Virus record (IMG/VR): IMGVR_UViG_3300037423_001547
DNA from: a virus
Strand: one strand, 5' to 3'
Length of the DNA stretch: 64,000 nt
Shown here: positions 1,722 to 31,000 of the stretch, piece by piece
How the letters are laid out: each line of letters opens with the position of its first letter
Numbering within the stretch: position 1 is the first letter of the stretch
Made by a program: the position numbers and the translations under genes
The notes under the pieces: generated by a model
Databases searched by the model: none
Told to the model about the DNA's origin: nothing
Seen by the model: the letters and a program-made list of their open reading frames with translations, nothing else

Positions 1722-1888
1722 GGGCGTGTGTCCTTCGGGTCGCATGTGCACTTCTCGGGGTGGTCGCACGCCAGTTGCGCGAACCGGCGGTCGGCGTCCA
1801 GGTCGAGGGCGTGCCGGTCGGGGTCGTCGAGGGGTAGTGACTGGCGGAGCGCTTCGAGCGCGGCCACCTGCTCCGTGAGGGCGCTCAC
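1718..1888 (-). CDS. small hypothetical protein (56 aa)
   Basis: Read by hand: VSALTEQVAALEALRQSL...CDHPEKCTCDPKDTRP. GTGA overlaps at both ends tie it to the neighbouring genes. It is below the ORF-track size cutoff. Confidence 0.45.
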   Translation of the reverse strand: MSALTEQVAALEALRQSLPLDDPDRHALDLDADRRFAQLACDHPEKCTCDPKDTRP

Positions 1889-3384: not shown

Positions 3385-3638
3385 GCCCTCACCACCGGCT
3401 TCAGCGGGCCGAACGCCGTCTCCACCAGACGCCACGTCCACGCGAACGACTCGCCCACGCCGGCGTCCTCCGGGTTGGACGGCTGCGGGCAAGCCAGCAG
3501 CACCTCACCCGACGGGGTGTGCCCGCTCGGCACCCACGTGTCGCCCTCGCGGTCCACGAACGCCTGCGGGGACTGGTGCAGCGGGAGAACCCTGCTGCGG
3601 GTCTGCGATGATGTGCTCAAGGTGATCCACTCCTTCAC
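3381..3638 (-). CDS. hypothetical protein (85 aa)
   Basis: ORF in the cro-led operon with plausible composition (FVDREGDTWVPSGHTPSGEVLLACPQ). Confidence 0.55.
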   Translation of the reverse strand: MKEWITLSTSSQTRSRVLPLHQSPQAFVDREGDTWVPSGHTPSGEVLLACPQPSNPEDAGVGESFAWTWRLVETAFGPLKPVVRA

Positions 3639-4832: not shown

Positions 4833-5393
4833 GTGCGGTGGATGAGTCTCACAGGCAGTACGCGGACCACAACGACGGCAGGCATAGCGCTCCTGGCCGC
4901 CGGCCTGGCTCTCTGCACCAGCGGAGCCATCCGCGACAGCCTCCCCCACGCCCTCGGCGGAACGTGCCTCACCACTGTCGCGCTCACACTGATCGCACTG
5001 ACCCTCATCCGGCAATGGGTCAGTGACACGCGGCACGAGCGGAAAGACTTGGCTGCCGCACGCCACGACGCCGAGGCGCAGCAGCGTAAGTTCTTCGCTC
5101 TTCAGGCGGCTAACGAAGGTGAGATGGCCCGTTTCAAACGGGACATGAACATGGAGAAGGCCCGCATCGTCGAGACGCTCAGGGTTGAGCGGGAGGCGAT
5201 GCGGGCCCAGTTCGAAGAGGAACGCCTGCAAGTCAGCCAGAACGCGTTCCGGATGGGCGTTGAGATGGAGCGGTCCGGGGCGCTGAGGGCCGTGAAGCCG
5301 GTCCAGCTCGACAATCTCATCCCGTTCCCGGAGCAGGCCTCCCGAGCGTCGGAGCATCAGCGGTCTCGGGAGCACGGAGTGGTCGGTCCCTGA
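4833..5393 (+). CDS. membrane-anchored coiled-coil protein, co-oriented with the repressor
   Basis: Two N-terminal hydrophobic segments (AGIALLAAGLALC, LTTVALTLIALTLI) followed by a charged coiled coil. ATG 4842 is an alternative start. The 3' end overlaps the integrase 3' end convergently. Confidence 0.55.
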   Translation: MRWMSLTGSTRTTTTAGIALLAAGLALCTSGAIRDSLPHALGGTCLTTVALTLIALTLIRQWVSDTRHERKDLAAARHDAEAQQRKFFALQAANEGEMARFKRDMNMEKARIVETLRVEREAMRAQFEEERLQVSQNAFRMGVEMERSGALRAVKPVQLDNLIPFPEQASRASEHQRSREHGVVGP

Positions 5394-9744: not shown

Positions 9745-10929
9745 TTACAGGCCGACCCAGGCCGCCATGTGGTTCAGCGTGTCCGGCGTCCGACGGGCCA
9801 CATGTACCAGCCCGCGGATCGTCTCCCGCGCGCCAGGGTGGTAGCGGGTCTGCTCCGGCGCCGCGTGACGGGCATCGACCAGCGACTGCAACGCCGCCTC
9901 CGTGTGCCCAGTCTCCATCTCCGTGCGGGCCCGGTCGATGAAGAAGTGGGCGCGGCGGCTGGTGGCGAGCGACGGCGGCAGCTTGATCCTGCGGGCCTGC
10001 GTCAGTGCGGCGTCGTAGTGACGCATCTCCACGGCCGCCGACATCCGGTGCAACATCACATTGGTCGGGCCGAACGACAGCCAGTGAACGTCGGAGGCGT
10101 CCCCGATCCGCTGCGCGATCTGCCGTGCCTCGGAGATGTGGCTGACGACGGTGCTCGTCTGCCGGGCCCGTGCTGCGATGACGGACGCCCCGAGGTGCAG
10201 CTGTCCCATGACCGCGTGCGCTTCGCGGGTGGGTTCGGCCTGCGCAACGGTTGTGTGCCCGGACGCGATGAGTCGCTGGCCGATGGTGTACTCGCCCTCC
10301 CGGAAGTAGACGAGGGCGCGCATGTACTGGCGGACCGCCCCCAAGCACGGGTCCGAAGCACGCTCGGCAGCCCACGCCATCCGGTCCAGGGCGACCGCCG
10401 ACAGATCGTAGTAGCCGAGCTTCACGCTGATGTCGTGGGCGGTCCGGTACGTCGAAGCCAGCGCCTGCCACAGCTCGGTCGACGGCATTGCCCAAGCAGT
10501 GTGCGTGAGTTCGGCGATCGCGCCGGGCAGTGCGCGGGCGGCGTTGCGGAGGTGGGTGGCGCGCACCTGCTCGCACAGCCGGTCCGCCTCCGTGATGAGG
10601 ACGTCGGCCGGCCGGGCGCGCAGGTCCGGGTTGGCGCCGAGGTCGTACAGGTCGAGGGCCTCGCGGATCGGGCGGACCAGTTCGGCGAGCCGGTCGCGTT
10701 GGAGTTCGGTCACGTAGGGCTGTCCCGTGAGGGTGGTGACGTCGACCTTCAGGGCGTGTGCTACGGCTGCGACGAAGTCGGCTGTGGCGGGGCGGGCGCC
10801 GCACTCCACTTGGTTGAGGAGGCTGTACGAGTAGGGGATGCGGTCGGCGAGTGAGCGTTGGGTGAGCCTGGCCAGTTTGCGTTGTTCGCGGATCCGCGCG
10901 CCGGTGTGGTCGTCGTCCAGTGTGGGCAT
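9745..10929 (-). CDS. XRE-family regulator with long helical-repeat (TPR-like) C-terminal domain
   Basis: N-terminus GARIREQRKLARLTQRSLADRIPYSYSLLNQVECGARP is an HTH_31-type motif. About 300 further residues form an Ala/Leu/Arg-rich helical domain, an architecture common in Streptomyces. Confidence 0.85.
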   Translation of the reverse strand: MPTLDDDHTGARIREQRKLARLTQRSLADRIPYSYSLLNQVECGARPATADFVAAVAHALKVDVTTLTGQPYVTELQRDRLAELVRPIREALDLYDLGANPDLRARPADVLITEADRLCEQVRATHLRNAARALPGAIAELTHTAWAMPSTELWQALASTYRTAHDISVKLGYYDLSAVALDRMAWAAERASDPCLGAVRQYMRALVYFREGEYTIGQRLIASGHTTVAQAEPTREAHAVMGQLHLGASVIAARARQTSTVVSHISEARQIAQRIGDASDVHWLSFGPTNVMLHRMSAAVEMRHYDAALTQARRIKLPPSLATSRRAHFFIDRARTEMETGHTEAALQSLVDARHAAPEQTRYHPGARETIRGLVHVARRTPDTLNHMAAWVGL

Positions 10930-11046: not shown

Positions 11047-11595
11047 ATGACCTCTCGTGTGCTGTACCTGTTCGGCTCGGCGGCTCCTCCGGTCTTCGAC
11101 ATCGCGGCCGTGATCCGGGATGCGCAAGCGCGTGGGTTCGACGTGTGCCTCGGCCTCACTCCCACCGCGAACCGGTGGCTCAGCGAGCAGCTCCCCGACC
11201 TGGAGGAGCTGACCGGGCGCCCAGTCCGGTCCGAGTACAAGCTGCCCGGCGAGCCCGACGTGTGGCCCAAGGCCGACGTCATCGCCGTCGCGCCGGCGAC
11301 CTTCAACACGGTCAACGCGTGGGCGCTCGGCATCACCCGGGACTTCGTTGTCGGTGTCGTCGCCGAGGGCATCGGCAAGGGGATCCCGATCGTGACCATG
11401 CCCTGTGTGAACGCGGCCTACGTGCAGCACCGGCAGTTCGAGCGGAGCGTCGGCGAGCTACGGGAGATGGGGGTGCAGGTGCTGTACGGGGAGGGCGGGT
11501 TCGTGCCGAACCTGCCGGGCCAGGGAAAGCCGAAGGAGTATCCGTGGCACCTGGTGCTCGACACGGCAGAGCGGATTGCGGCGTCAACCCCGTAG
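11047..11595 (+). CDS. HFCD-family flavoprotein (CoaC/EpiD-like cysteine-decarboxylase fold)
   Basis: VLYLFGSAAPP...GLTPTANRWL...VAPATFNTVNAWALGITRD...MPCVN matches the flavoprotein (PF02441-type) signature as I remember it. 182 aa. Confidence 0.75.
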   Translation: MTSRVLYLFGSAAPPVFDIAAVIRDAQARGFDVCLGLTPTANRWLSEQLPDLEELTGRPVRSEYKLPGEPDVWPKADVIAVAPATFNTVNAWALGITRDFVVGVVAEGIGKGIPIVTMPCVNAAYVQHRQFERSVGELREMGVQVLYGEGGFVPNLPGQGKPKEYPWHLVLDTAERIAASTP

Positions 11596-15385: not shown

Positions 15386-16330
15386 TTACTGGGCGAGGCG
15401 CGCGGCGAGTTTGGCCGCGACCTTCTCTGCGATCTGTTCGGCGAGTGCCGGGTTCGCGGCGACCGCTGCGGCGAGCGCCGTGATCTGCGCGTCCGACACG
15501 ACCGGCGTCGTCAGCGTGTCGACCTTCTTCGCGAGCTCGCGCAGGCGGGTGTTGGTGTCCTTGAGGTAGGACTGGGGCTGCCAGGTCGTGTTGGTGGCCG
15601 CGTCCGGCGCATCCGGCGGGGCGGCGACCTGGTCGGTCTTCCAGACGGCGTCGTAGATGTCGGCCTTGGTGATTCCGGCCATGGGGTCCTCTTCCTGGGT
15701 GGGTCCTGCACGGAGGGTGGAGGCCACGTCGGAGCGGACCGCAGGCATGGCCATGATCTTGCCCGGGGCGTAGCCGGGGTCCCACTTGTCGTCGGACCAT
15801 TCGCCGTGCGCGATGACCGAGCGTTCCGTCCAGCCGTGGAAATCGAGGACCGCCGCCGACAACCGGCGGGCCGCCGCATACTGCGCCGCGCTCATCTCAT
15901 GCGATCCGCTGTACTGGATCTCGACGCCGTAGAAGTGGGCGTTGCCGTCCACCCCGTCGCTGTTGCCGCGCGTCGGGTGCAACTGGCCCGTGTAGTCCTC
16001 GTTGATGACGTGCTGCAGCACCGCCGGGTCGCCGCCGCCAGCGTGGTTCGCTCGGCCCCAGCCGATCAGGTAGACGGTGCCGTCGGCGCCGATGGAGAAG
16101 TGGCAGAGCGGGCCCGGCAGGTCGGAGAGTCCGTTGTAGAGGGTGCCTGCGGCGTAGGCCTTGGCGTCTTTCACGTCGGCGCCGGTGTGGTGCCAGATGA
16201 AGCCGTTGACCGGCCCCCACGCGCCCTTGCTGTTGCGGTTGTGGGTGGCCCAGCCGGAGATCTCGACGTACCGGAGACCCCACTTCTTCAGCTGGGTGAC
16301 GGCCTCCGTGGCCGTCATCGGGGTCGCCAT
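15386..16330 (-). CDS. endolysin, N-acetylmuramoyl-L-alanine amidase (PGRP/amidase_2 type)
   Basis: From ATG 16330 (GGAG upstream): GFIWHHTGADV...GRANHAGGGD...FYGVEIQYSG are amidase_2-like motifs, with an Ala-rich C-terminal domain. The track extension to 16429 has no RBS and covers a regulatory motif. Confidence 0.88.
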   Translation of the reverse strand: MATPMTATEAVTQLKKWGLRYVEISGWATHNRNSKGAWGPVNGFIWHHTGADVKDAKAYAAGTLYNGLSDLPGPLCHFSIGADGTVYLIGWGRANHAGGGDPAVLQHVINEDYTGQLHPTRGNSDGVDGNAHFYGVEIQYSGSHEMSAAQYAAARRLSAAVLDFHGWTERSVIAHGEWSDDKWDPGYAPGKIMAMPAVRSDVASTLRAGPTQEEDPMAGITKADIYDAVWKTDQVAAPPDAPDAATNTTWQPQSYLKDTNTRLRELAKKVDTLTTPVVSDAQITALAAAVAANPALAEQIAEKVAAKLAARLAQ

Positions 16331-16331
16331 C

Positions 16332-16382
16332 TCAGGCTCCGTTCGCGCTGGCGTGGCGGGCGAGTGACGATTCCGCGGGCAT
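16332..16382 (-). CDS. 16-codon upstream ORF coupled to the endolysin start
   Basis: ATG 16382 preceded by GGGAGG. Encodes MPAESSLARHASANGA. The TGA (16334-16332) sits 1 nt before the lysin ATG. Confidence 0.3.
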   Translation of the reverse strand: MPAESSLARHASANGA

Positions 16383-16405
16383 GCTGGCCTCCCACAGGCT
16401 AGGTT

Positions 16406-16419
16406 CCTTTGAATCGTAG
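16406..16419 (-). promoter_or_regulatory. late-operon leader motif, copy 1 (upstream of the lysis genes)
   Basis: The minus strand reads CTACGATTCAAAGG, 23 nt upstream of the uORF ATG. A second GAATCGCAG copy lies at 16443-16451. Confidence 0.5.
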
Positions 16420-16572
16420 CCTGTAGCACCCCATTGACCTATGAATCGCAGGCTATAGTTCGTTCATCCCTGGCTCAGGGGATGGCGGCGGGAGCGTGTC
16501 CGTGCGGGTCGCGCTCTCGCCGCGCCAGGCACCGGCACCCCCACCCGCACAAACCCGCACGCAGGAGCAGCC

Positions 16573-17310
16573 ATGCATGACCCGCTCACCGTCGCGTTCG
16601 AGATCCGCCGCCCCTGGCCGGAGCGCTCCACCCTCCCCGCCGCAGGCGACAAGGCCGCGCGCTGGCGCATCCGCCTCCACCACGACTGTGGCACCTGGTG
16701 CGCCGACGACCCACCTCACAAGGGCGGCGCGTTCCCCTGGTGGAAGCCCTCCAGCTACAGCGCGTTCTGGCGCCTCGCAGGCCGGGACTACTACTTCCCG
16801 CCCGTGATCACCGTGTGGCACCGGGAGCCTGGTGGGCGTGACGGCCTGACGGTGTGCAGCAGACGTGTCCAGCGTCGCGACGGTACGTGGCGGCGCACGC
16901 GCGGCTGGCGTTGGCACATTCACCATTACAAGATCCAGTTGCGGCCCTTCCAGAAGTGGCGCCGACGCCTGCTCACCCGCTGCGCCTGGTGCGGTGGCCG
17001 CTCCGTGAAGGGCGACCAAGTCAACGTCTCCCACTCCTGGAACGGCTCGCGATCCCGCTGGTGGCAGGGCGAACGTGGCTTGTTCCACCGGGACTGCTCC
17101 CCGATCGAACGGGCCCACGCCACCTGCGTGTGCACGCGGCCCGTGCTGGACCACGACACCTACGGGAGGTGCGCCAGCTGCGGCCGGTTCCGGCCCTTCG
17201 GCCTCACCGACGCCAACCTCGCCCGCGCCCGCGACCTCCAGACCATCCCGAAGGGCAGCCGCCGCGCCGACGCCGAGGAGAAGCCCGTGGCGGACGGGGA
17301 CGAGTCGTGA
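16573..17310 (+). CDS. Trp/Arg/Cys/His-rich protein of unknown function, first gene of the plus-strand cassette
   Basis: 245 aa containing VWHREPGGRD, WRWHIHHYKIQ, CAWCGG and CASCG, which looks like a metal-binding arrangement. I recognise no family. Confidence 0.65.
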   Translation: MHDPLTVAFEIRRPWPERSTLPAAGDKAARWRIRLHHDCGTWCADDPPHKGGAFPWWKPSSYSAFWRLAGRDYYFPPVITVWHREPGGRDGLTVCSRRVQRRDGTWRRTRGWRWHIHHYKIQLRPFQKWRRRLLTRCAWCGGRSVKGDQVNVSHSWNGSRSRWWQGERGLFHRDCSPIERAHATCVCTRPVLDHDTYGRCASCGRFRPFGLTDANLARARDLQTIPKGSRRADAEEKPVADGDES

Positions 17311-17410
17311 GCTACCTGTGCGCCGCGTTGGCGTTCCTGTTCGCGTTCGTCGTCCTCGCCCCACACGCCGAAGTCCACGTAGAGCCCGTACCTGCCGCGT
17401 GGAGCGGCCG

Positions 17411-17569
17411 ATGAACACCGCCGTCACCATCACCGCGATCATCGCCGCCGTCGCCCTGCTGAACAGCGGCATCACCGCCCTACGCGACATCGCCAAAGCG
17501 AAACACCAGACCGTCACTAAGCACTGCAAGACCTGCACCTGCGACAACAGCAAGGAGTCAGAGGCATGA
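17411..17569 (+). CDS. small membrane protein (52 aa)
   Basis: ATG 17411 preceded by GGAG. Has a TM segment (VTITAIIAAVALL) and a Cys-rich tail (CKTCTC). Its stop overlaps the epimerase ATG (ATGA). Confidence 0.5.
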   Translation: MNTAVTITAIIAAVALLNSGITALRDIAKAKHQTVTKHCKTCTCDNSKESEA

Positions 17570-19242
17570 AGGTTCTGATCACGGGTGGCAGCGGCTTCAT
17601 CGCCTCATGGTGCCGCCGGGAACTCCTCGCGCGAGGCCACAGCGTGCTGGTCATGGACCACCAGGACCGCCGCCAGCACCTCGCAGACGGCGAGGAGTTC
17701 TTCCTCGGCGACGTCCGTGACGCAACCGCCGTCACCGAAGCCGCCGCCCACGTCGACGGGATCATCCACCTCGCCGCCGTCCTCGGCACCCAGGAGACCA
17801 TCAGCAACCCGCGGCCCAGCGCCGAGACGAACATCCTCGGCAGCCTGAACGTCTTCGAGGCCGCCGTGCAGTACAACCTCCCTGCGGTCTATGCAGGGGT
17901 GGGGAACGCGTGGATGCGGGACCACGGAACCGGCTCCTACACGATCAGCAAGACGGCGGCCGAGGACTTCGTCCGCATGTTCAACGCCTACCGCAGCGGC
18001 CGTATCACGATCGTCCGCCCCGTCAACGCCTACGGGCCGGGGCAGAGCATCGCCGCCCCCTACGGCTGCGTCGATCCGAGCACACCCGTACTGTGCGCCG
18101 ACCTCGTCTGGAGGCCGATCTCCAGCCTGCGGGAAGGTGACGAGATCGTCGGCATCGACGAGTACGCGCCAGCGAAGAAGCAGCGAAAGCTGCGTCGGTC
18201 CACCGTGACGGGCTCGTGGGCAACGCGAAAGCATGCCGTCCGTCTCCACTTCGACGACGGCCGGTCGGTCACCTGCTCGCTCGATCACCCCTGGCTCGCA
18301 TCCTCACCGTCGGGGCAGATCCGCCAGTGGATCGAGGCGCGGAAGCTCCGCACAGGGGACCGCGTCGTGTGGGCCACGGATCAGACCTGGGACGCTGGGG
18401 ACAGCCGTTCCCACGGCTACGTCTCTGGACTCCTCGACGGCGAGGGGCATGTAGGCGGCCACGGCCCGGTATTCACGCAGAACCCCGGCCCCGTGCTGGA
18501 CGAGTACCTCTACCTCCTCAAAGAGTTCGGGTTCGAGCCCCAGACCCGGACGAAGGAGAACGGCCGGATCGTCGTGGACACGTCGGTCTCGGGACTGACT
18601 TCACGACTTCGGCTGCTGGGCGAGTTCCGCCCCGTCCGTCTCCTTGCGAGGGCCTCGCAGCTCTGGGAAGACAAGGCGCCGAACGGCGGCCGGGCGACCA
18701 TCACGGCCATCGAAGAGCTGGGCGAGACGGACCTGTGGGACGTCGAGACCACGTCGCACACCTACATCGCCAACGGGTTCGCGTCACACAACTCCAGCAA
18801 GGTCCGCAAGATCATGCCCGCCCTGACGTGCCGTGCGCTGACCGGTGCGGACATCGAGGTGTACGGCGACGGCACCCAGATCTCCGACTGCGTGTACGTC
18901 GGCGACGTGGCGCGGACGTTCGTGACCGCGTTTGAGCACACCGCCGCGCACGGGCCGACGGAGAAGCCGGTGGAGGTCGGGCCGCTCACGTCGGTCACCG
19001 TCAACGACATCGCCCGCCTGGTCGCTGAGGAGGCCGCGCGGGTGACGGGGCGGGAGCCGGTCGGGTTGAAGCATCTGCCGATGCGGCCGGGTGAGGTCCC
19101 GAACGCTGTCGTCTCCTCCGACACCAGCACGCTGCAGCAGATCGGGATGACGGCCGCGGACTTCGTGCCGCTCGACGAGGGCATCCACCACACGGTCCGC
19201 TACTACGCCGAGCAGTGGCTCCCCGGCTACCTGGCCGCCTGA
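17566..19242 (+). CDS. NAD-dependent sugar epimerase/dehydratase (extended SDR) interrupted by an intein
   Basis: Rossmann motif TGGSGFIAS and catalytic SYTISK (YxxxK). The exteins (167 + 149 aa) sum to 316 aa, the normal length for GalE/RmlB-like enzymes. Confidence 0.88.
   Translation: MKVLITGGSGFIASWCRRELLARGHSVLVMDHQDRRQHLADGEEFFLGDVRDATAVTEAAAHVDGIIHLAAVLGTQETISNPRPSAETNILGSLNVFEAAVQYNLPAVYAGVGNAWMRDHGTGSYTISKTAAEDFVRMFNAYRSGRITIVRPVNAYGPGQSIAAPYGCVDPSTPVLCADLVWRPISSLREGDEIVGIDEYAPAKKQRKLRRSTVTGSWATRKHAVRLHFDDGRSVTCSLDHPWLASSPSGQIRQWIEARKLRTGDRVVWATDQTWDAGDSRSHGYVSGLLDGEGHVGGHGPVFTQNPGPVLDEYLYLLKEFGFEPQTRTKENGRIVVDTSVSGLTSRLRLLGEFRPVRLLARASQLWEDKAPNGGRATITAIEELGETDLWDVETTSHTYIANGFASHNSSKVRKIMPALTCRALTGADIEVYGDGTQISDCVYVGDVARTFVTAFEHTAAHGPTEKPVEVGPLTSVTVNDIARLVAEEAARVTGREPVGLKHLPMRPGEVPNAVVSSDTSTLQQIGMTAADFVPLDEGIHHTVRYYAEQWLPGYLAA
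18067..18792 (+). mobile_element. intein (242 aa) with a LAGLIDADG-like motif
   Basis: Starts with Cys (CVDPSTPVLCADL). Block B is VTCSLDHPW, followed by GYVSGLLDGEGHV. It ends TSHTYIANGFASHN and is followed by Ser (+1). Confidence 0.85.
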
Positions 19243-19257
19243 ACGAAGGAGGCGGCC

Positions 19258-19860
19258 GTGGCCCGCTTGCAGATCCTGCAACTTCCCGAAGGCGCTGGCG
19301 ACGACCGGCCGCCGTTCGTCCTCGTCATCGACCAGCACCAGCCGCAGCGCTACGCACTCGGCATCGGCGAGGACGAGCCCGAGATGGTCGACGAGTTCGC
19401 CGGCGTCGCCGAGCAGATCGGGGCCCGTGTCGTGTTGGTGTTCCAAGAGACCGTCGAGATCCCTGCGAATGAGACCGCCGTGCACGCGCAACCCCTGATG
19501 CGCGTCGCGGACTTCGCGGGGCTCGACGAGATCAAGCGGCTGACCGAAGAGCGTGACGAAGCCCGCCTGTGGGCCCGACACGGCTACGAGATCGGGCAAC
19601 GCCACTGCGGCTGGTCCGACCACGGCGTCGCACCCGACTGGCTCACCGAAGGTTGGCCGCCCCACTTCGACGACTGCGAGCACTTCAAGCGTGCGGCGGA
19701 CTACGACGAGGCGCTCACCCGCGTCCGCAACCTGCCCGAGGAGCCCAAGTTCATGGATGCCCTGCACTCCGACTCCGCTGGCTACCGGCACGGCTACCGA
19801 GTGGCCATCGGCGATGCCAAGCGCGCCACCCGAGCCCGAGCCGCAGAGGACGGAGGCTGA
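19258..19860 (+). CDS. hypothetical protein (200 aa)
   Basis: Balanced composition, GGAGG upstream, embedded between the epimerase and the glycosyltransferase. Confidence 0.65.
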   Translation: MARLQILQLPEGAGDDRPPFVLVIDQHQPQRYALGIGEDEPEMVDEFAGVAEQIGARVVLVFQETVEIPANETAVHAQPLMRVADFAGLDEIKRLTEERDEARLWARHGYEIGQRHCGWSDHGVAPDWLTEGWPPHFDDCEHFKRAADYDEALTRVRNLPEEPKFMDALHSDSAGYRHGYRVAIGDAKRATRARAAEDGG

Positions 19861-19861
19861 C

Positions 19862-20875
19862 GTGCGCTGCCACTTCTGGTCCGCTGACCAGGCGGGTTCC
19901 AGTCTGTACAGGGCTACCCTGCCCGGGATGAGCTTGCAGTGGCTCGGTCACAATGTGTCCGGCGGCATGCGACTCCCCCAGGACTGGCCTGCCCTCGACG
20001 CGGTCGTTGGCTGCCGGGTGGCCAAGCGGGAGCCGTCCCTGATGTGGCACAAGCTGAAGGACGAGGGGAAGCGGCTCGTCCTCGACCTCGACGACGACTA
20101 CTTCCACATCGACCCCAGCAACGCCCACGCCCGCCAGGTCTGGGACACCGACATGCTCGGCAGGCTCGTCGCCAACATGCAGATCGCAGACCTCGTCACC
20201 TGCTGCTCCGAACCCCTCGCCGACGTCCTCCGCAACTACGCCGAAAACGTGCGAGTGATTCCGAACGGGCTGCCGGCGCAGTACCTGGGCACGCCCCGCG
20301 ACTACGAGGCCGCGGATCGTCCGCTGTTCGTGGGCTGGGCTGGCACGTCGTCCACGGTGGCGGAGTTGCCAGAGACTGTTCGCGCCCTCAACCGGATCGC
20401 CCAGTACCCGCGGCCCGGCGGCGGGGTGCAGGTCCGCATCGTTGGGATCAGCCCGGAGCACGCGATGGGCCTGGGGCTGCGCGGCCGGCGGGTCGGTGCG
20501 TTGGGTTGGGTGGAGCGGTTCGAGCACTACCTGCACGCGGTGTCCGAGTTCGACGTGTGGTGTGCGCCGTACAGGGACACGGCGTTCAACCGGGCGAAGT
20601 TCGCTACGAAGTGGCTGGAGGCCTCGGTGCTGGGGATCCCGCTGATCGCCTCCGATATCGAGCCGTACCGGCGGGTGATCCGGCATGGGGAGAACGGGTT
20701 CCTCGTGAAGTACGAGCACGAGTGGGGACGCTGGCTTAAGCGGCTCGCCGACGACCCGGAGCTGCGCCAGCGGATCGGGATGACGGCGCGGGGTGAGGCG
20801 TCGGGCAGCATCATGCAGGCGTTGCATCACCAGTGGGAGGCGGCCGTCCGCATGCCTGCGGAGGTGACCGCATGA
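19862..20875 (+). CDS. GT-B fold glycosyltransferase (GT1/GT4-like)
   Basis: GTG 19862 with GGACGGAGG upstream. The C-terminal KWLEASVLGIPLIASDIEPYRRVIRHGENGFLV matches the E-x7-E sugar-donor region of GT4-type enzymes. Confidence 0.78.
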   Translation: MRCHFWSADQAGSSLYRATLPGMSLQWLGHNVSGGMRLPQDWPALDAVVGCRVAKREPSLMWHKLKDEGKRLVLDLDDDYFHIDPSNAHARQVWDTDMLGRLVANMQIADLVTCCSEPLADVLRNYAENVRVIPNGLPAQYLGTPRDYEAADRPLFVGWAGTSSTVAELPETVRALNRIAQYPRPGGGVQVRIVGISPEHAMGLGLRGRRVGALGWVERFEHYLHAVSEFDVWCAPYRDTAFNRAKFATKWLEASVLGIPLIASDIEPYRRVIRHGENGFLVKYEHEWGRWLKRLADDPELRQRIGMTARGEASGSIMQALHHQWEAAVRMPAEVTA

Positions 20876-21117
20876 TCGCCCGCCTGACCTGGATCCCTGA
20901 CAACGGCGAGAGCGAGACCCTCACCGTAGACATCGCAGCACCCTGGCTCGAAGAGTTCCGCTCCTTGATCGGCACGCCCGAGTGGGCAAGCAGCGAAGCC
21001 GTCATGTGGATCCCCTGCCGTACCCGCGATGACCAGCCCATGACGAAGCGTCTGTTCCGGCTCGCACGCATCATCGCACTCGAACCCGTCCCAGCTGCGG
21101 AGAGGTCGACGCCTTGA
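20872..21117 (+). CDS. hypothetical protein (81 aa)
   Basis: ATGA overlap with the glycosyltransferase stop. Confidence 0.5.
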   Translation: MIARLTWIPDNGESETLTVDIAAPWLEEFRSLIGTPEWASSEAVMWIPCRTRDDQPMTKRLFRLARIIALEPVPAAERSTP

Positions 21118-21299
21118 CCGGGCCAGATCATTACCGCGAAGGCGAGCACCTCCTCGGCCGCTGCCTGGAATGGGGCCACGGCGAGCAACGCCAAGCCCTG
21201 GCCGTCGAAGCCGTCGCCCACTTTCTTGCCGCGCTCGTCGCCGCCACAGCCACCCACCAGCACCCCGAATCCGTCCGATGGCAGGAGGCCACCGAATGA
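21114..21299 (+). CDS. hypothetical protein (61 aa)
   Basis: TTG start overlapping the upstream stop. Its own stop overlaps the next ATG. Weak call. Confidence 0.4.
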   Translation: MTGPDHYREGEHLLGRCLEWGHGEQRQALAVEAVAHFLAALVAATATHQHPESVRWQEATE

Positions 21300-22165
21300 T
21301 CGACGGCAAAAGAGTCATTGCGTGGACCCCCTACGGCCGGGTCCGGACGTACAGCATCCTCTTCCAGTACCTGCGGCGGGACTTCGAGGATGGCCTCCTC
21401 GACGAGGTCTGGCTGTACATGAACACCGACCCGACCGGCCAGGAAGACGACATTGCCTACGCCCACCAGCTCGCCGAGGAGCACTCGACCTGGGTCAAGC
21501 TCAAGCACCGGCCCGAAGGCGTCCACCTCGGCCACCTGCCCAAGCAGAGGTACACCGGCCTGGCCTACCGGGAAATGATCGACCCGGACACGGTCTACCT
21601 GCGGCTCGACGATGATGTCGTCTACCTGCACGAGGACGCGATCGAGAACCTCGTGCGCGCCCGCATCGAGATGCCGGCGCCGACCGCCGTGTTCCCGATC
21701 ATCGTCAACAACGCGATCTGCTCCCACTTCCTCCAGGTCTGCGGGAAGGTCCCCATGGAGTGGGGTGAGGTCAAGCCGTACTGCATGGACCCGACCGGCT
21801 GGGCCAACGGGCCCTTCGCCGTCAAGCTGCACGAGATGCTCCTCGACCACATCGACGCCGGCACCGTCGACCAGCTCTACCTGTACCAGGACTTCCCGCT
21901 CCAGCCAGGCACGCAGTTCTCCGTGTCCTGCTTCGCGAGCCTCGGCAGCATGTACGCCGGCCTCCCGCACGGGCCCGGCATCCTCGTGCCGGATGAAGAG
22001 GAGAGCTGGCACACCATCCACCGGCCGCTCGCCACCGGCGCCCCGAACATCCTCCGCGGCGACGCGATCGTCAGCCACTGGTCGTTCTTCCCGCAGCATC
22101 CGTTCCTCAACAACACCACGCTCCTGGACCGGTACCGGGAGATCGCAGACAAGGCGGTGGCCTGA
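21296..22165 (+). CDS. putative GT-A-like glycosyltransferase (DxD-type motif)
   Basis: From ATG 21296 (ATGA overlap), 289 aa. VYLRLDDDVVYLHEDAI resembles a DxD nucleotide-sugar/metal site after an N-terminal beta-alpha region. The family is not identified. Confidence 0.55.
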   Translation: MIDGKRVIAWTPYGRVRTYSILFQYLRRDFEDGLLDEVWLYMNTDPTGQEDDIAYAHQLAEEHSTWVKLKHRPEGVHLGHLPKQRYTGLAYREMIDPDTVYLRLDDDVVYLHEDAIENLVRARIEMPAPTAVFPIIVNNAICSHFLQVCGKVPMEWGEVKPYCMDPTGWANGPFAVKLHEMLLDHIDAGTVDQLYLYQDFPLQPGTQFSVSCFASLGSMYAGLPHGPGILVPDEEESWHTIHRPLATGAPNILRGDAIVSHWSFFPQHPFLNNTTLLDRYREIADKAVA

Positions 22166-23907: not shown

Positions 23908-26817
23908 TCAGATCCGGAAGCACCAGAAGTAGATGGACCAGAGCCCGGATCCGGCGGGGCTGATGGTGGCGGTGAACCCGGTGGCGTCGGATGCAGTGCA
24001 AGAGTTCGAATGGACCACATCGTCACGAATGGTGTAGATGGGCAGCATTTGGGATGCCTTGGTGGAACCGAAGGAGATGGAGATGGACGATGAGCCGCTG
24101 GTGGCGTCGATGGACCCGGTGAAAAGTCCCATGTTCGTGCCGCGGTCGGTGAAGTCGTCCCACTTGCCGGTGTGGTGGGTGATGCTGTCGTTGCCGAACC
24201 AGAGCACGTTTTCGTTGCCGGTTCCCTGCCCGAACCCGACAAAGGCTTGGTTCGCGTCAGCGTAGAATTCCCCGCCTTGACCGTATGAGACCTGCGCTTT
24301 GTTCGAGTCGGCGTAAAAGTTTCCCCCCTCGGTTCCGCCTCTGTTGAACCCGGCGTAGAGGGCTCCCGGCGCGGCCCATACGTAGCCGCCGCGTCGTTGC
24401 TCGCTGGGGAACGTGATGCTTTCGAGGGCGGCGGCGGAACTGGTCAGATAGACGCGGTTGGCGCACGTGACGCCTGCGTCGTCGAAGGGGCTGGAGTTGA
24501 CGCCGACGGAGACGTCCGTGCCTGCCGAGACGCCGTTGATGGACCCGTAGTCGGTGCCGGTGTTGGCGTAGAAGCGGATCTCGGGCAGGAGTGTGGCGGT
24601 TGGGTTGATCTCGATACGGCGGCCGCTGGTCCCGGATTTGAGCTGCCCGATGATGGACACCGACCCGTCAGCCGCCGCGATGTTCACCGTCTGCGTGCCT
24701 GAGCCGTTGTAGGCAAGCAGCCCTGCGCTGGAGAGTTCAACGCGCGCCCCGCTGTCGGCGGTCTTGATGCGCGAGCCGACGATCCAGTCCGCGCTGATCG
24801 TGCCAGCGGTGACCTTGGTGACGGTGAGATCAGAGATGTGGGCGTCGTCGATGAGGAGCGCGGTCGCCGTGGCCGCATCCGAGGGCCCGCTCTTGTTGCC
24901 CGCCTTGTCGACCGCGATCACCCGGACGTAGCGGGCCGATGTCTCCTCCACCTGCACCGTGAAGACGACCGGGATCTGCGCCTGCATCATGCCCGCGTTT
25001 GCGACGGCCTTGCCGAGCAGCGTCGAGGTGGACGGCGTGAACGTCGGCTCGTAGCTCACGTGGACTTCGAGGTGGTCGAGGTCCGCCTCCAGGTTGTACG
25101 TACCGCCACTGGACTTGCCAAGGGTGTGCGTGATCTGCACAGCGATCCGTGAGCCGGCCACCGACGGGGCCGCCGGCGTGGACGGCGGAATGTTGTCCGA
25201 GGTTGCCACGAACGTCGTGGTAGCCGACCAGGCGCCAGTGTTGCCGGTGGAGTCGACGCCACGGATCTGCACGTCGTAGCCGACACCAGGGCTGAGGTCG
25301 AGGAGTTCGGCGGTGGTGTGGTCCCAGGCCACCGTCATGTACTGCCACTGGGTGGACGGTGCGGCAAACGGCTGCTTCCAGACCTGCATGTCCTGCCAGC
25401 GGATCTGGCTGACCTGGGACCAGGTGGCCGGGTAGATCATGTCGGTGTCGATGGCCCAGCGGATGTCGTAGTGGTCGCCGTCCAGGACGGTGGAGCCGTC
25501 GACGTTGTTCGGGGCGTTCCAGGACAGGATCGTGCGGGCGCGGGTGAAACCGCGGTTGTCGAGGTAGGCGGCGCCGGTGAATGGGGTGATGAATACCGGT
25601 ACGCCTGGCGTCGAGGTGTCGCTGTTGGGGCGGGAGCCGACGGGTTCGGTGCTGGTGTTGGTGAGCTGGCGGGAGAAGTCGCCGACGGTCACCGTGGACG
25701 TGGCGTCGGTTTCCCATTCGACGTACTGGGTGAGATCAGTCCAGGTGCCGTTCGCGTCGCGGTAGGCGACCGTGTACTGCTCGGTGATCGCCCACTGGGT
25801 TTCGGCGACTTGCAGTTTGATCGGGTTGATTCGTACGCCCCGGAACGTGATCTCCGTGCTCGTGTCGACGAGCCCACTGTCCGGGTCGTACACCCACACT
25901 CGGTCACCGACGACGAAGCTGCCGTGGACGTCGTAGTCGGCCGTGCTGAGGGTGAGGGCGTTGCGGGTCGACGTGAACTGGGACAGGGCCAGTTGCGCCC
26001 GTGTGGCCGCGTTTGCGGTCGCCGTGTCCGACTCGGACACCAGCCGTGTCAGCTTCAGCGCGTTGCCGTGGATGTCCTTGTACGGAGTCGCCGGGCTGAT
26101 GTTCGCCGACCCGGTGGCGATGCTGGAGCCCTCGCCCTCCGCGAGGAGCACCACCCGCGTGCTGTAGTCCTCCACATCCCGGGTGACGTCCACGCTGCCG
26201 GGCAGCGCACGGAGGAACATGTCCTCCCCGGTCTCCTTGGTGGTGATCACACAGGTGGGGTTGGTGACGAACAGGCTGCTGTCCGGGCCCGCGTCCAACG
26301 TCCCGTTGCCGTTGACCCGCCAGGACACCGGCACCGAAGTGGTGGACATGGTGTCGCACACGTAGGTGATCGCCTCACGGGGCGACTCGTACTGATGCCG
26401 GCCGGTGTACTGCCCGGACACGCTGTAGATGGTGCCTGCGGTGACCGCGCCGCTGGCTGGCAGGAGCATGTTGATGGCGGTGGCGAAGGATGCGGACGCG
26501 GGCTCAACCGCGTTCTCGTAGACGTCGCCCTTGCCGTCCTCGTCCCCCAGCCAGAACGCCATGCCGACCCCGCCGATGGACAGATCGTCTTGGGGAGCCG
26601 CGGTGCGGCCGTCGTCGCCGATGGTGCGGGTGCGGAGGACACCGACGTAGCGGGCGGCAGTCAGCAGGTTGTCGCCGTACTGGGCCGGGTCCAACCGGCC
26701 GGGGATGATCGCGACATGCCCGAAGTAATCGAGGCGGTCGAGGACGTCGCGGGGCGTCCCAGGGAGGAGCTTGACCTCCCACGAGCCGAGGGCTTTGAGA
26801 ACCTCCTGGACAGCCAC
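23908..26817 (-). CDS. tail-associated lysin/tip protein (Tal-like minor tail protein) with FN3-like repeats
   Basis: 969 aa directly after Dit, GTG start with GGAGG upstream. The N-terminal part is like prophage tail endopeptidase family proteins, and the middle is FN3-like (WSATTTFVATSD, PSTPAAPSV). Confidence 0.82.
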   Translation of the reverse strand: MAVQEVLKALGSWEVKLLPGTPRDVLDRLDYFGHVAIIPGRLDPAQYGDNLLTAARYVGVLRTRTIGDDGRTAAPQDDLSIGGVGMAFWLGDEDGKGDVYENAVEPASASFATAINMLLPASGAVTAGTIYSVSGQYTGRHQYESPREAITYVCDTMSTTSVPVSWRVNGNGTLDAGPDSSLFVTNPTCVITTKETGEDMFLRALPGSVDVTRDVEDYSTRVVLLAEGEGSSIATGSANISPATPYKDIHGNALKLTRLVSESDTATANAATRAQLALSQFTSTRNALTLSTADYDVHGSFVVGDRVWVYDPDSGLVDTSTEITFRGVRINPIKLQVAETQWAITEQYTVAYRDANGTWTDLTQYVEWETDATSTVTVGDFSRQLTNTSTEPVGSRPNSDTSTPGVPVFITPFTGAAYLDNRGFTRARTILSWNAPNNVDGSTVLDGDHYDIRWAIDTDMIYPATWSQVSQIRWQDMQVWKQPFAAPSTQWQYMTVAWDHTTAELLDLSPGVGYDVQIRGVDSTGNTGAWSATTTFVATSDNIPPSTPAAPSVAGSRIAVQITHTLGKSSGGTYNLEADLDHLEVHVSYEPTFTPSTSTLLGKAVANAGMMQAQIPVVFTVQVEETSARYVRVIAVDKAGNKSGPSDAATATALLIDDAHISDLTVTKVTAGTISADWIVGSRIKTADSGARVELSSAGLLAYNGSGTQTVNIAAADGSVSIIGQLKSGTSGRRIEINPTATLLPEIRFYANTGTDYGSINGVSAGTDVSVGVNSSPFDDAGVTCANRVYLTSSAAALESITFPSEQRRGGYVWAAPGALYAGFNRGGTEGGNFYADSNKAQVSYGQGGEFYADANQAFVGFGQGTGNENVLWFGNDSITHHTGKWDDFTDRGTNMGLFTGSIDATSGSSSISISFGSTKASQMLPIYTIRDDVVHSNSCTASDATGFTATISPAGSGLWSIYFWCFRI

Positions 26818-26820
26818 CCG

Positions 26821-28029
26821 CTACCTCCGAACCCCATAGACGCTCTCCGGCATGCATGCCACGTACTGGTTCCGCAGATCCGTCGCCGCGTCCCCTGAGA
26901 CCGCGCTGCCGCCGCCGGCTACGACTCCGATCCAGAAGTCCATGCTCGTCGTACTCGCCTTGGTGACGCCGCCGTTCGTGTGTGCGGTGAAGGTGCGGGC
27001 GGAGCCGACGGCGAACCGGTTGCCGTCGGAGTCGTTCGCCGTGGCGGTGACGTATCCGGATGCCGCGAAGCTGGTGTTGGTCTCCAGCGTGGACCGGTAG
27101 GCGGCCAACGTGGCGGAGGTGCCGGTCTGGAGGTAGCCCTCAACGAACCGGGAGCCGCGGCGGAGGGTGAGGTCGAGGGTGGTGCGCCCGGGGTTCTGGC
27201 TCTTGATGAGCCTCACGACGGCCATCTCGGGGTCGTTGCGGATGAGGGTGGCTGCGTCCCAGGTGGTGATGCTGCTGGCGGATCCGGCGACGGAGACGTT
27301 CCACAGCTTCGAGTGGTAGGCGCCGCCGGTGTAGGCCTGTACGTCGAGGGTGGCCGAGGCGCTGGGTGTGACGTTGACGAGGCCGTTCGACAGGGCCCAA
27401 CCAGCGGCCGAGAGCGGCACGTCGACGCCGTACACCTCCTGCGACGCCGTGGTGGTGACCTTCACGCGGCCCGTCAGGTAGCTGGTCGGGGCGCAGCCCC
27501 AGCGTGGGCTGATGTTGGCGGGGACGCTGCGGTAGACGGTGATCGTGCCGTCCGCGCTGGCGCGGGTCATCGTGGTCGGGTTGGTGGTGCCGGTGTAGTA
27601 GCCGTAGTGGCCGATCGGCGGGGCGTGCCAGCGCTCGCCGGTCAGGGAGAAGTCGTTCAACCGGACGGCGCCGGTGAGGCGGGACTGGAGGTCGGTCTCC
27701 GAGTCGGAGCCGACCCGGTCCAGGCTGACTTTCCAGTCGGCGGTCACCATGTCCGTGCGGTACTCGGTGTACGTGCTGCTCGCGGCCTTGACCGTGTAGT
27801 AGCCGTTCCGCTCCGGCTTGTCCGTCCACGTGACGGGGATGCACTGGCCCGGGATCAGCGCGTTGATCCCGTCGTGTCGGGCCACCACCTGCGCGCGGGT
27901 GAGCGGCGGATACGACTCCTGCCCTTCGATGTCGAGGCTACGGTCGTCGCCGCCAGACTCTCCGACGGCGAACGTCTCCCGCAATGGGATCCGCCCGAGC
28001 TGGACGTCGCCCCAGTTGTACAAGGCCAT
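26821..28029 (-). CDS. distal tail protein (Dit)
   Basis: ATG 28029 forms an ATGA overlap with the tape-measure stop. Size and position are canonical. The track extension to 28320 is Arg-rich and lies inside the tape-measure gene. Confidence 0.75.
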   Translation of the reverse strand: MALYNWGDVQLGRIPLRETFAVGESGGDDRSLDIEGQESYPPLTRAQVVARHDGINALIPGQCIPVTWTDKPERNGYYTVKAASSTYTEYRTDMVTADWKVSLDRVGSDSETDLQSRLTGAVRLNDFSLTGERWHAPPIGHYGYYTGTTNPTTMTRASADGTITVYRSVPANISPRWGCAPTSYLTGRVKVTTTASQEVYGVDVPLSAAGWALSNGLVNVTPSASATLDVQAYTGGAYHSKLWNVSVAGSASSITTWDAATLIRNDPEMAVVRLIKSQNPGRTTLDLTLRRGSRFVEGYLQTGTSATLAAYRSTLETNTSFAASGYVTATANDSDGNRFAVGSARTFTAHTNGGVTKASTTSMDFWIGVVAGGGSAVSGDAATDLRNQYVACMPESVYGVRR

Positions 28030-31000
28030 CAGCGCGCCCTCTCCCGGTCGTAGGTCCGCAGCGCTTCCTTGATCTCGACGACCAGCTCCTGCGCGGCCTG
28101 CCTGCGCGCGGACCGGCTGGAGAAGTCGAAGCTGCCCGAGACGGTGATGTTCTCGATCGTGACGCTGCCGCCACCCCGACCGGAGACGAGCTGCTCGAAC
28201 ATCGCCGTCTGCCGGGCGTCCAGCACGCGCTCCGGGCGTCCGGTCCGGTTGATGGCCATCGTGGCGCCGGGCTGCAGCAGGCCACCGCTGTCGTACTTGG
28301 CGGCCGGCGCGAAGCCCCACCGGCTGGTGAACAGGCTGTCGCGGTAGGAGCGGGCGCGCGGGCCGACGATGACGCCGGCGCCGCCCCGGGACTCGACGTT
28401 GACGCCTGCGATGGTGCCTGCGGTGTGGCCGACACCGGAGTTGGTGATCCCGACCATGAAGGGGCTGTTGAGGTTGCGGACCCAGCCGGACGGGCCGTTG
28501 TTCCCGACGAACGCGCCGGTCGCCCAGCGGCGGTGCGGGCGCTCGCCACGGATCACAGACTCAATCGCCGACATGAACCCGGAGCAGTCCCAGCTGGGGT
28601 TCCCGTTTCCGGCCCACTGATAGGGCAGGCCAGCCTGGGTCTTCGCCCACGCCAGCGCCCGCTGTACGGCTGGCCCGCCCACGGCCTTCTTGTCCTCGTT
28701 GCCCAGGAAAGACAGCATCCCGTCGAGGGCCTTGTTGGAGAGGCCCTTCAGGAGGGAGCCGACGCCGCCGCCGGGGATCCGGCCGATGAGCGGGCGGACG
28801 ATGGCGGCGATGGCTTTCTGCGCGGCCGACTTGAGTCCACCGATCACCAGGTCTTTCGCCCAGTCGACTGCGCCGCCGATGGCTCCTCCGATGCCGGAGG
28901 TGATGCTGCCGACGATGCCGCCGGAGGCGTAGTGCTGGGTGCCGCCTTGGTACCGGCGGCGTTCCTCTTGCCTGCTGGGGTTGCCGCCGGTTTTGGTGGG
29001 GTGGTCCTGGCCGAGCATGGCGTCGATGCCGCGGTGTCCGCCGAGCTGGGCGACCTGCTGCTTGGAGAGGATGCGCTCGCCGGGGGTGAGCATGGCGGGG
29101 ACGGTGTCGGTGTTGCCGGTGCCGGGGACGACGCCGCCCTTGTTGAAGCCGAGGCTGATGGTGGGCAGCGTCAGCTTGGAGTTGATTTTTCCGGCGATGG
29201 TGTTCCACATCTTCCGGATGCCTGAGTTGTACACATGTGACACCACCCATTTCACGGGGGCCGCGAACTTGGACTGGATGCCCGCGAACAGGGTTCCGGT
29301 GCCGTCACGGATCGCGCGGACACCGTTGAGGAAGGCGTTCTTGAAGTCGCTGAGCTTGCCTCGCAGGGTGGAGAAGACGCTGGTGACCTTGGACACGGCG
29401 CTGTTCCACAGCCCGTTCCAGGTGTTCGTGACCGAAGTCCTCAGCCCGGACACCCAGTTCACTACCGACGTCTTCGCGCCGGTGAGGGCCTTCCACAGTC
29501 CGGACCAGAAGCTGTCCCACTTCGATCGGGCGCTGTTCCACAGGTTGTTCCAGGTGTCGACGACCCACTTGCGCAGGTTGTTGAAGATCTCCTTCGACTT
29601 CGTCCAGAGCTTGGTGAACCAGTCGATGATCGCGTGCACCAGATCCGGGATGATCGAGTGCCCGACGAGAACGTCATACAGCCACGTGAACTTGTCGACG
29701 ATCCACTTGACGCCGTCCGTGATCGCCTTGGTGAACGTGGTGATCCACCCGATGACCGTCGTAATCGCCGGGACCAGCGTGGTGATCGCGCTCGTGAGTA
29801 CGGTCGTCAGCATGGTCGCGAGCTGGAGGATCAGCGGCATCAAAGGTGTGAGCACCTGCAACGCCAGGTCCAACAGCGCGATCGTGAGCTGCGACAGCGG
29901 CGGAATCAACGGCAACACCGCAAGCATCAGCTGCGGGAACAAAGGAGCCAACTGCCCGAGGAACTGGCCGAACTGCTGCACGATCGGCACCAGCGCCCCG
30001 ACGACCGGCAACAAGCCCTGCGTCAACGCGCCGATCAGCGGCACCAACTGGGCGCCGAACGCCGAGATCATCGGCCCCAGCGCCTCGACGATAGCCCCGA
30101 TCAGCTCACCGAGCGGCGGCAGCAGCGGCATGACCGCCTGCACCAGCCCGACGATGATGTCCCCGACATCCGACACGATCGGCAGCAGCGCGTCCACGAT
30201 CGGCATCAACGCCTTGCCCAGCGCAGCGGCGAGGTCGGCGAGGACGGGCCCGAACTTTTCCGCCAACTCGGTCACGACTGGCGCCAGCGCGGCGAGCAGC
30301 GGCAGCAGCGCCTCGATCACCGCACCCAGGGTTCCCGCGAACAGCTTCGCGATCGAGTTGACCGCCGTAAAGATCGACGTGAGGGCCTTCTGCACCTCCG
30401 GCATCGCTGTGATCTTCCGCAGCTCCGCGAACACGGCCCCCAACGAACCGAGCGCGTCACCACCACCTGCGGATGCCGCCTTGAAGATGTTCTTGACCGT
30501 GCCGAAGATGTCACCGAGGAGCTGCCCGAACTGCTTCGCGATGTCGACACCGTTGTTGATGGCGTCCTCAAGAGCACCCGACTTGAACGCGTCCGACAAC
30601 TTCTTCGAGATGCGGTCCGCCGCAGTGCCGGCCGCCGTCGTCAGCCGCTCGAACGCTGGCGACGCGGCGATGCTGATCTGCGTGAGCGCGGTGACGATCT
30701 GCCCGGGGATCCGGGTCAGCTGGCTCGTGGCGTCGTTGAGGCCCTGGAACATCTTCCGCAGTTGGCCGGTCTTCGCCAGCTCGATCACAGCGTTCGCGGC
30801 GTTCGTCGCCATCGCGTTGAGATTGCTGGCCATGCCGACCAGCCCAGCCCGCAGCGAGGGGATCACCGCCGTGGACAGCTCGGTGAACTTCTGCCCCAAC
30901 CCTTGGAAGAGGGCGTTCTGAACGTCCAGCTTCAGGCCCCGCCACGCATCCCGCTGCGCGAGCACAGAGTTGACGAAGGCCTGCGCGTTCGGCGCCAGGT

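Follow-up and report, generated by a model that had tools for sequence, protein, structure and literature searches.

Results

An intein in an epimerase/dehydratase gene of a Streptomyces phage

The stretch of DNA analysed here (the window) is the 64,000-nucleotide (nt) IMG/VR virus record IMGVR_UViG_3300037423_001547, which we assign to a temperate Streptomyces siphophage. Our subject is a gene on its plus strand that encodes a 558-amino-acid (aa) protein of the extended short-chain dehydrogenase/reductase (SDR) type, interrupted by what appears to be a compact, mobile intein. A first-pass annotation, made from the letters of the window alone, had proposed that residues 168-409 of this protein are an intein, and its coordinates were borne out: the insert occupies nt 18067-18792 of the plus-strand open reading frame (ORF) 17566-19242. 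The motifs on which the proposal was built are likewise all present, namely TGGSGFIAS and SYTISK in the host protein, CVDPSTPVL, ...VTCSLDHPW and HGYVSGLLDGEGH (18412-18450) in the insert, and ...TSHTYIANGFASHN followed by Ser at its end (nt 18730-18795). The features of the gene are as follows.

17566-19242, plus strand: precursor gene, encoding a 558-aa extended SDR (NAD-dependent epimerase/dehydratase family) interrupted by the intein; PF01370 matches in two stretches, 121 bits
17566-18066, plus strand: N-extein, aa 1-167, with the Rossmann GxxGxxG, Y125/K129, the NAYGPGQ motif and ...APYG at its end; aligns to 4zrm at E = 6e-25
18067-18792, plus strand: class-1 intein, 242 aa, Cys1 to His-Asn; exact gap relative to 317-aa homologues, NF038136 match at E = 3.7e-18, AlphaFold (AF2) model with a pLDDT (predicted local distance difference test) score of 95.4, Foldseek matches
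18067-18069, plus strand: Cys1 codon TGC, presumed first splicing nucleophile; Cys in all SDR alleles examined and in 163 of 163 family inteins
18277-18288, plus strand: block B SLDH (S71-x-x-H74, i.e., TxxH with Ser for Thr); H74 invariant and S71 at least 90% conserved in a 30-sequence family alignment
18382-18681, plus strand: single LAGLIDADG endonuclease domain, intein aa ~106-205, with the motif named above; E126 is the presumed catalytic acid
18730-18792, plus strand: blocks F/G, DLWDVETTSHTYIANGFASHN, with the penultimate His and terminal Asn; H241 and N242 invariant, His-Asn terminal in 162 of 163 family inteins
18793-18795, plus strand: +1 Ser codon TCC, presumed second splicing nucleophile; Ser in all intein-bearing alleles examined
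18793-19242, plus strand: C-extein, aa 410-558 and stop, beginning SSKVRKIMPAL..., the substrate-binding half of the SDR

Removal of the insert leaves a protein of 316 aa, and intein-free homologues measure 315-322 aa. The host protein matches PF01370 far above the cut-off (121 against 20.9 bits), in keeping with the extended-SDR epimerase/dehydratase that the first-pass annotation had recognized, and it is phage-borne, as was also proposed, with terminase, portal, scaffold, capsid, tape measure, minor tail, amidase, integrase and repressor genes around it. The identical 558-aa protein (P0001) was present on 17 metagenome contigs. A large protein search further yielded six homologues of ~555-570 aa, 55-87% identical to the window protein, and more than 110 homologues of 315-322 aa, with exteins up to 93% identical. 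In the short homologues ...APYG runs straight into (T/S)SKVRK..., the 242 residues of the insert being exactly what is missing; the gap is precise against 113 intein-free homologues, and a 14-sequence alignment of the exteins with intein-free homologues placed it at this junction. The insert was found at the same site in at least ten diverged alleles, with an intact reading frame in each; besides the alleles of the protein search, two intein-bearing ones lie on IMG/VR viral contigs.

The insert belongs to a large family and is predicted to adopt an intein fold

The seven full-length SDR inteins are 48-91% identical and all keep Cys1, the S-x-x-H of block B, the F/G blocks and the terminal His-Asn; Ser+1 is kept in every intein-bearing SDR allele examined. 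An exhaustive HMMER search with a profile of the SDR inteins, run against 1.84 billion representative proteins, returned 4219 proteins at E <= 1e-3, of which 951 reached E <= 1e-30, and the best 150 of these matches extend almost all end to end over 237-282 residues. Across 163 segments of the family, Cys1 is universal (100%), the terminal His-Asn is kept in all but one (162/163), and position +1 is Ser, Cys or Thr without exception (163/163). The insert-family profile matched the ORF in the window at E = 5e-96, its sole match in the six-frame translation, such that no second intein was found in the 64-kb window by this search. Of the curated models, NCBIfam NF038136 (intein-containing Rv2578c radical SAM) spans the whole 242-aa insert (E = 3.7e-18).

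When the intein was modelled by AF2 with the 30-sequence family alignment, the result (pLDDT 95.4, predicted template modelling score 0.90) was a HINT fold bearing one LAGLIDADG domain; this run superseded one made from the seven SDR inteins alone, in which pLDDT was 58 and the endonuclease region was unresolved. Foldseek related the model at probability 1.0 to the solved inteins TliVMA, PhoVMA, PI-SceI, Mxe GyrA, Ssp and Npu DnaB, Mtu RecA and gp41-1, with template modelling (TM) scores, normalised to the target, of 0.72-0.82 to the Npu/Ssp DnaB, gp41-1 and RecA mini-inteins. Such profile and Foldseek matches are far stronger than chance would give. The exact insertion, the junction residues, the fold and the profile matches thus agree with the first-pass proposal, and from sequence and model together the identity of the insert as an intein is established short of experiment.

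We infer from these features that the intein splices, in the following way. Translation would yield the 558-aa precursor, in which Cys168 (Cys1) would perform the N-S acyl shift; the thioester would then be handed on to Ser410 (+1), cyclisation of Asn409, aided by His408 and the block-B His, would release the intein, and an O-N shift would join ...APYG to SSKVRK... to give the 316-aa extended-SDR enzyme. The insertion lies nine residues past the conserved NxYGP motif, in the loop before the substrate-binding half (aligned with 'YGPRQD-PYG/EAGV' of 4zrm, the slash marking the junction), and the precursor should therefore be inactive until spliced.

The endonuclease domain is compact and conserved

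As the first-pass annotation had noted, there is a single LAGLIDADG-like motif, which reads G121-L-L-D124-G-E126-G; the 30 aligned family sequences all have E126, and at least 90% of them have D124. The insert matches PF14528 (LAGLIDADG_3) at 26.3 bits (cut-off 22.5, E = 9e-6), and an endonuclease profile matches PI-PfuI (second LAGLIDADG domain), I-AniI and I-HjeMI at E = 6e-5 to 4e-3. In the AF2 model the domain shows the order alpha-beta-beta-alpha-beta-beta-alpha, with helices at residues 114-126, 142-153 and 177-187 and strands at 127-130, 133-138, 158-162 and 170-174. Residues E126, Q138, G141 and R191 are the same in all of the 30 diverged family members aligned, and the ratio of nonsynonymous to synonymous substitution rates (dN/dS) of the endonuclease region is 0.13 for the window allele and P0002 and 0.055 for P0003 and P0004, at or below the values of the splicing domain. 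Judged by codon comparison, ratios this low are unlike the pattern of a decaying endonuclease.

The compact one-domain architecture is kept in at least 951 representative clusters (E <= 1e-30). The window intein and proteins P0121-P0269 belong to this very large family of compact inteins, of 237-282 aa with a single LAGLIDADG domain. No description of one-motif LAGLIDADG inteins was found in the open-access literature, an absence that does not prove that none exists.

Near-identical inteins in diverged exteins, and empty sites in close relatives

Three pairs of alleles were compared over intein and extein.

P0005/P0006: intein 98.8% nt identity, extein 64.7%
P0003/P0004: intein 83% nt identity, extein 70%
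window/P0002: intein 90% nt identity, extein 82%

For P0005 and P0006 the switch in identity is step-like, being confined to one 60-nt window of the comparison at each junction, and near-identical inteins in such diverged exteins indicate recent homing. The nearest extein relatives of the window allele (91-92% aa identity) are intein-free. Moreover, the 202-kb contig that carries P0003 is syntenic with the Streptomyces jumbo phage Frankenweenie (~80% nt identity), whose gp170 lacks 726 nt to within 1 nt of the intein coordinates, the ambiguity being a shared junction base; the exteins are 85% identical in nt, and gp170 has Pro at +1. The same intein is thus lodged at the same site both in uncultured jumbo-phage contigs of ~200 kb and in temperate phages of ~60 kb. 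Since the site is occupied in two unrelated phage types and empty in close relatives, this is the picture expected of homing, and the intein appears still to move between phages.

In the corresponding model, the intein, once excised, would serve as a homing endonuclease that attacks intein-free alleles of co-resident or co-infecting Streptomyces phages, with ...GCC CCC TAC GGC / ACS AGC AAG GTN CGC AAG... as target (the slash marks the insertion point), and recombinational repair would copy the intein together with a Thr-to-Ser change at +1. The +1 residue goes with the presence or absence of the intein: it is Thr in 108 of the 113 intein-free homologues, the others having Pro (three), Ile (one) or Ser (one, P0095). 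For the alleles with DNA, the +1 codon is TCC or TCT in the intein-bearing set (window, L007, L012-L015, L018, L019) versus ACG or ACC in the intein-free set (L009, L011, L016, L017). The Ser of P0095 may have been left behind when an intein was lost, or the site may be pre-adapted.

The nearest relatives of the intein outside SDR genes are ~46% identical and lie in poorly annotated proteins of ~680 aa with weak terminase-like matches. These proteins were considered as donors and rejected, their junction sequences being unlike that of APYG and SSK, and no donor is named. On L014, the contig of P0005, an HNH_3 endonuclease gene (1200-1748) overlaps the start of the intein-bearing epimerase gene (1745-3421), such that two different homing-type elements stand side by side, downstream of a clamp-loader-like AAA gene.

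Weighing the readings

The reading that best accounts for the anatomy of the element, its exact insertion, the conservation of its junction residues, its fold, the purifying selection on it and its horizontal transfer between diverged alleles and two unrelated phage types is that the insert is a genuine class-1 intein, probably splicing, of a large compact family with a HINT domain and one LAGLIDADG domain (~240-280 aa), homing included. We give this reading a probability of about 0.72.

Several observations weigh against it. The first concerns the generic curated splicing models, which give significant E-values and stay below their gathering scores: Pfam PF14890 (Intein_splicing) scores 23.8 bits against a cut-off of 35.8 (E = 4.5e-5), TIGR01445 22.2 against 24.5 bits and TIGR01443 12.5 against 15.6 bits. 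NF038136 and the family profile make up for this shortfall. It is probably because the generic models fall below their cut-offs that the annotations of JGI and NCBI list these proteins as plain epimerases. Further, the intein of the window has one LAGLIDADG domain per chain, whereas the cleavage-assayed TerL inteins of the mycobacteriophages BAKA (gp6) and Bethlehem (gp10) have two motifs, with blocks C, D, E and H (PMC5050341). A homodimer might be expected to favour a pseudo-palindromic target, and the homing site has none above background: it matches at 7-8 of 11 positions, where the null gives 6.6 on average and 8-9 at most, so that the comparison is uninformative. In the host enzyme, V112 falls at the canonical catalytic Ser/Thr position in the pairwise phmmer alignment to 4zrm. 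Finally, general phage recombination, or a nuclease supplied in trans, could in principle have carried the near-identical inteins from one allele to another.

The last point leads to the strongest alternative, in which the intein splices and the one-domain endonuclease of the window copy is inactive, the element being kept by vertical inheritance in prophages together with phage-phage recombination or a trans nuclease. The single motif, the target with no pseudo-palindrome above background, the free-standing HNH_3 gene that abuts the intein-bearing gene in L014 and the modest contrast between the window allele and P0002 (intein 90%, extein 82% nt) would all fit. We nevertheless regard it as unlikely: dN/dS in the endonuclease region (0.13 and 0.055) does not exceed that of the splicing domain, E126, Q138, G141 and R191 do not vary over 30 diverged members, the architecture persists in at least 951 representative clusters, and the boundary between 98.8% and 64.7% identity is step-like. 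The complete modelled domain, the dN/dS range of 0.055-0.13, the invariance of E126, Q138 and R191 and the signature of recent transfer likewise leave the first-pass suggestion that the endonuclease may be degenerate without support.

Much less probable is that the intein serves as a conditional switch, for instance through redox- or temperature-sensitive splicing, that gates a glycosylation enzyme in the lysogen or during infection, a role that would be compatible with mobility. Conditional splicing has been reported for other inteins. Here, the insertion adjoins the conserved NxYGP motif and substrate loop, so the precursor should be inactive, and extra cysteines occur near Cys1 (four alleles have Cys10, all seven SDR inteins have Cys70); against a switch, most alleles of the same gene work without an intein, and Cys10 is not kept in P0005-P0007. 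A constitutive, non-splicing Hint-like domain or a dead, disrupted pseudogene is scarcely credible, and we rejected both: curated splicing-domain models do fall below their cut-offs and public annotation pipelines flag no intein, but all splice-junction residues are kept across alleles 48-91% identical, close homologues lack exactly the insert, at least ten alleles have an uninterrupted frame, exteins and intein alike show dN/dS well below 1, and the HINT-fold model reaches pLDDT 95.

The host enzyme

In the 14-sequence alignment G7, G10, Y125 and K129 are invariant, and the best solved relative of the joined exteins is the UDP-glucose 4-epimerase of T. maritima (4zrm, E = 6e-25). The protein scores far below every NCBIfam equivalog cut-off, including those of GalE (TIGR01179, 68 against 262.3 bits) and RmlB (TIGR01181, 83 against 365.1 bits). 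The Thr of the SST motif of 4zrm is what we take to be the catalytic Ser/Thr of the triad; V112-G113-N114 of the window protein does not vary among the 14 aligned sequences, and a deletion of 13 residues precedes Y125 (window 17887-17952, aa 108-129). The active site of the SDR enzyme may be non-canonical. Purifying selection acts on the exteins (dN/dS 0.15-0.29), which speaks for the first-pass argument that an intein implies a needed enzyme; taken alone that argument is a weak one, and the invariant Val at the catalytic Ser/Thr position puts the chemistry in doubt. Most likely, the putative enzyme provides the neighbouring glycosyltransferase with a nucleotide sugar, which would serve to modify the virion or the surface of the host.

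Intein-free phage homologues in GenBank (OQ921725, MT310898, MH744418, OR553905) are labelled 'UDP-glucose dehydrogenase'. Their Pfam and PDB matches are to epimerase/dehydratase SDRs and not to COG1004, which suggests that the label is a misnomer.

The phage and its glycosylation cassette

Outside the precursor gene, the window carries the following genes.

657-2156, minus strand: RecT-like protein
5317-6957, minus strand: integrase (phrog_95)
9745-10929, minus strand: repressor-like regulator
11047-11595, plus strand: flavoprotein-family (PF02441) gene in the immunity region, adjoining the repressor-like gene
15386-16429, minus strand: amidase
16573-17310, plus strand: first cassette gene, 245 aa, with no family match, divergent from the amidase gene
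19258-19860, plus strand: 200-aa ORF between the epimerase and glycosyltransferase genes, with no family match
19928-20875, plus strand: GT-B glycosyltransferase (Glycos_transf_1/Glyco_trans_1_4 by Pfam; phrog_7162, E = 8e-40)
23908-26817, minus strand: minor tail protein
28029-32471, minus strand: tape measure protein
36417-37331, minus strand: capsid protein
37469-38191, minus strand: scaffold protein
39258-40847, minus strand: portal protein
40887-42596, minus strand: large terminase
49649-51541, minus strand: FtsK-like protein
60339-62411, minus strand: DnaB-like protein

The large terminase is less than 50% identical to any terminase of an isolated phage. Because phage genes lie at both ends of the window (1-2156 and 60339-64000), either the element extends beyond it or the JGI contig, of 55 kb, lacks a part. 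A search of the 64 kb for long direct repeats turned up none, which rules out a concatemer and revealed no att sites.

The epimerase gene belongs to a plus-strand cassette (16573-22165), the flanking lysis and tail genes being on the opposite strand. A scan of the cassette found no sigma-70 promoter, and terminator-like sites were at background level. The same arrangement is present in the intein-bearing prophage of Streptomyces sp. NPDC050416, in the intein-free prophage of S. bobili and in several metagenomic phage contigs, and the glycosyltransferase neighbour recurs in L007, L009, L011, L016 and L017. The slot between the epimerase and glycosyltransferase genes is variable, holding a Tad3-family (PF25185) gene in the S. 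bobili prophage (L011, 10971-11357) and either nothing or a 101-aa ORF in other relatives. Some intein-free relatives have a longer cassette with a second, RmlD-like SDR and a GT2 glycosyltransferase (L009 10346-11958, L011 14023-15644, L017 13232-14853); the window phage and the NPDC050416 prophage have the shorter one.

As for the start of the glycosyltransferase gene, a mechanical ORF at 19553-20875 (440 aa, GTG at 19553) overlaps the 200-aa ORF upstream, and the family match is limited to the last ~315 aa of its 440. Of the other gene calls, that of JGI on L001 (12363-13310, 315 aa) is equivalent to window 19928-20875, and that of Logan on L002 gives a product of 337 aa.

Comparison with known inteins

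A 2025 survey of PhagesDB lists 784 actinophage inteins in 19 host proteins, with no SDR or sugar-modifying enzyme among them (Gosselin et al. 2025, bioRxiv 10.1101/2025.01.02.630785), and a 2016 cross-domain survey has archaeal UDP-glucose dehydrogenase among its intein hosts and no epimerase (Novikova et al. 2016, PMC4760082). The closest relatives of the intein reside in PolA, Pol III alpha, TerL, UDG, helicase and RecA, and near relatives are also found in Mgm101-like proteins. The host gene is thus unusual for a phage intein, as the first-pass annotation had supposed. Its novelty also stood up to database searches, in which no GenBank phage record carried an intein-bearing allele: the gene had no megablast match among 50,697 phage records, and tblastn against GenBank phages returned only intein-free homologues or unrelated intein hosts, with no record covering at least 80% of the query. 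Two intein peptide patterns, searched in the GTDB species representatives, met only distant inteins in other genes and no close copy; none of the NCBIfam 'intein-containing' exception models matching here is for an epimerase; and the open-access literature yielded nothing relevant on epimerase/dehydratase inteins, which again is not proof that none has been described. As far as checked, the host gene is new for a phage intein and the element itself is a regular member of a large known kind.

That kind is best known from the class-1 LAGLIDADG inteins of actinobacteriophages (Kelley et al. 2016, PMC5050341; Gosselin et al. 2025), which share the Cys1...His-Asn/Ser+1 chemistry and the in-frame LAGLIDADG endonuclease and which likewise occur sporadically in phages of Actinobacteria, with near-identical inteins in diverged exteins. 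The window intein aligns at 26-33% identity with inteins in the terminases and portal proteins of phages of Mycobacterium, Gordonia and Ralstonia. It differs from the surveyed actinobacteriophage inteins in its host, an SDR in an accessory glycosylation cassette, and in its occurrence, in prophages and metagenomic phages only. The Rv2578c radical SAM intein of NF038136, the best curated match (model positions 76-334), is of the same compact size class but sits in another host protein and at another site; with 68 bits, the window protein stays well under the family cut-off of 700, only the intein part being related.

PI-SceI, PI-PfuI and TliVMA/PhoVMA (PDB 1vde, 1dq3, 7qsu, 7qst) have the same HINT fold with LAGLIDADG between blocks B and F, but they are monomers of 360-454 aa with two LAGLIDADG domains, whereas the window intein has 242 aa and one domain (TM, normalised to target, 0.27-0.36). 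Enzymes of the I-CreI type (PMC3943268) share the one motif per chain and the alpha-beta-beta-alpha-beta-beta-alpha core; unlike the domain described here, which lies inside an intein and whose target has no pseudo-palindrome above background, they are free-standing, intron-encoded and directed at pseudo-palindromic targets. Lastly, the archaeal UDP-glucose/GDP-mannose dehydrogenase inteins (COG1004; PMC4760082) also reside in an NAD-dependent nucleotide-sugar enzyme, but one of the UDP-GlcDH fold rather than an extended SDR, encoded by a cellular archaeal gene and not by a phage.

Discussion

Phage inteins have so far been found almost only in proteins of replication, repair, packaging and nucleotide metabolism and in a few structural proteins, and a sugar-nucleotide enzyme as host widens the range of target genes. 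The filled and empty alleles described here constitute a natural set for the study of homing between prophages and lytic phages. Standard pipelines missed this intein, the models falling below their cut-offs, and similar cases are probably under-counted. The intein, compact (242 aa), confidently modelled and equipped with Ser+1 and one LAGLIDADG domain, may also appeal to engineers of inteins and meganucleases.

Of most interest is the way in which members of this abundant family, with their one LAGLIDADG domain, would cleave DNA, an activity that we infer from the sequence and modelled fold of the domain. For one LAGLIDADG domain per chain a homodimer would be the simplest model, and for a single-motif domain it is the only known route to a double-strand break (review PMC3943268). 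A bolder proposal, which we hold tentatively and consider doubtful, is that compact one-LAGLIDADG inteins, a large and evidently mobile family, act in a way undescribed for intein endonucleases, either as obligate homodimers of the excised intein or as nickases, and that the jump into a Rossmann-fold sugar enzyme of an accessory cassette would show homing cycles to be sustainable in dispensable 'moron' genes; the linked Thr-to-Ser change at +1 would then belong to the footprint of invasion. If true, such homing would be conditional on there being enough co-resident prophage alleles with the same conserved target.

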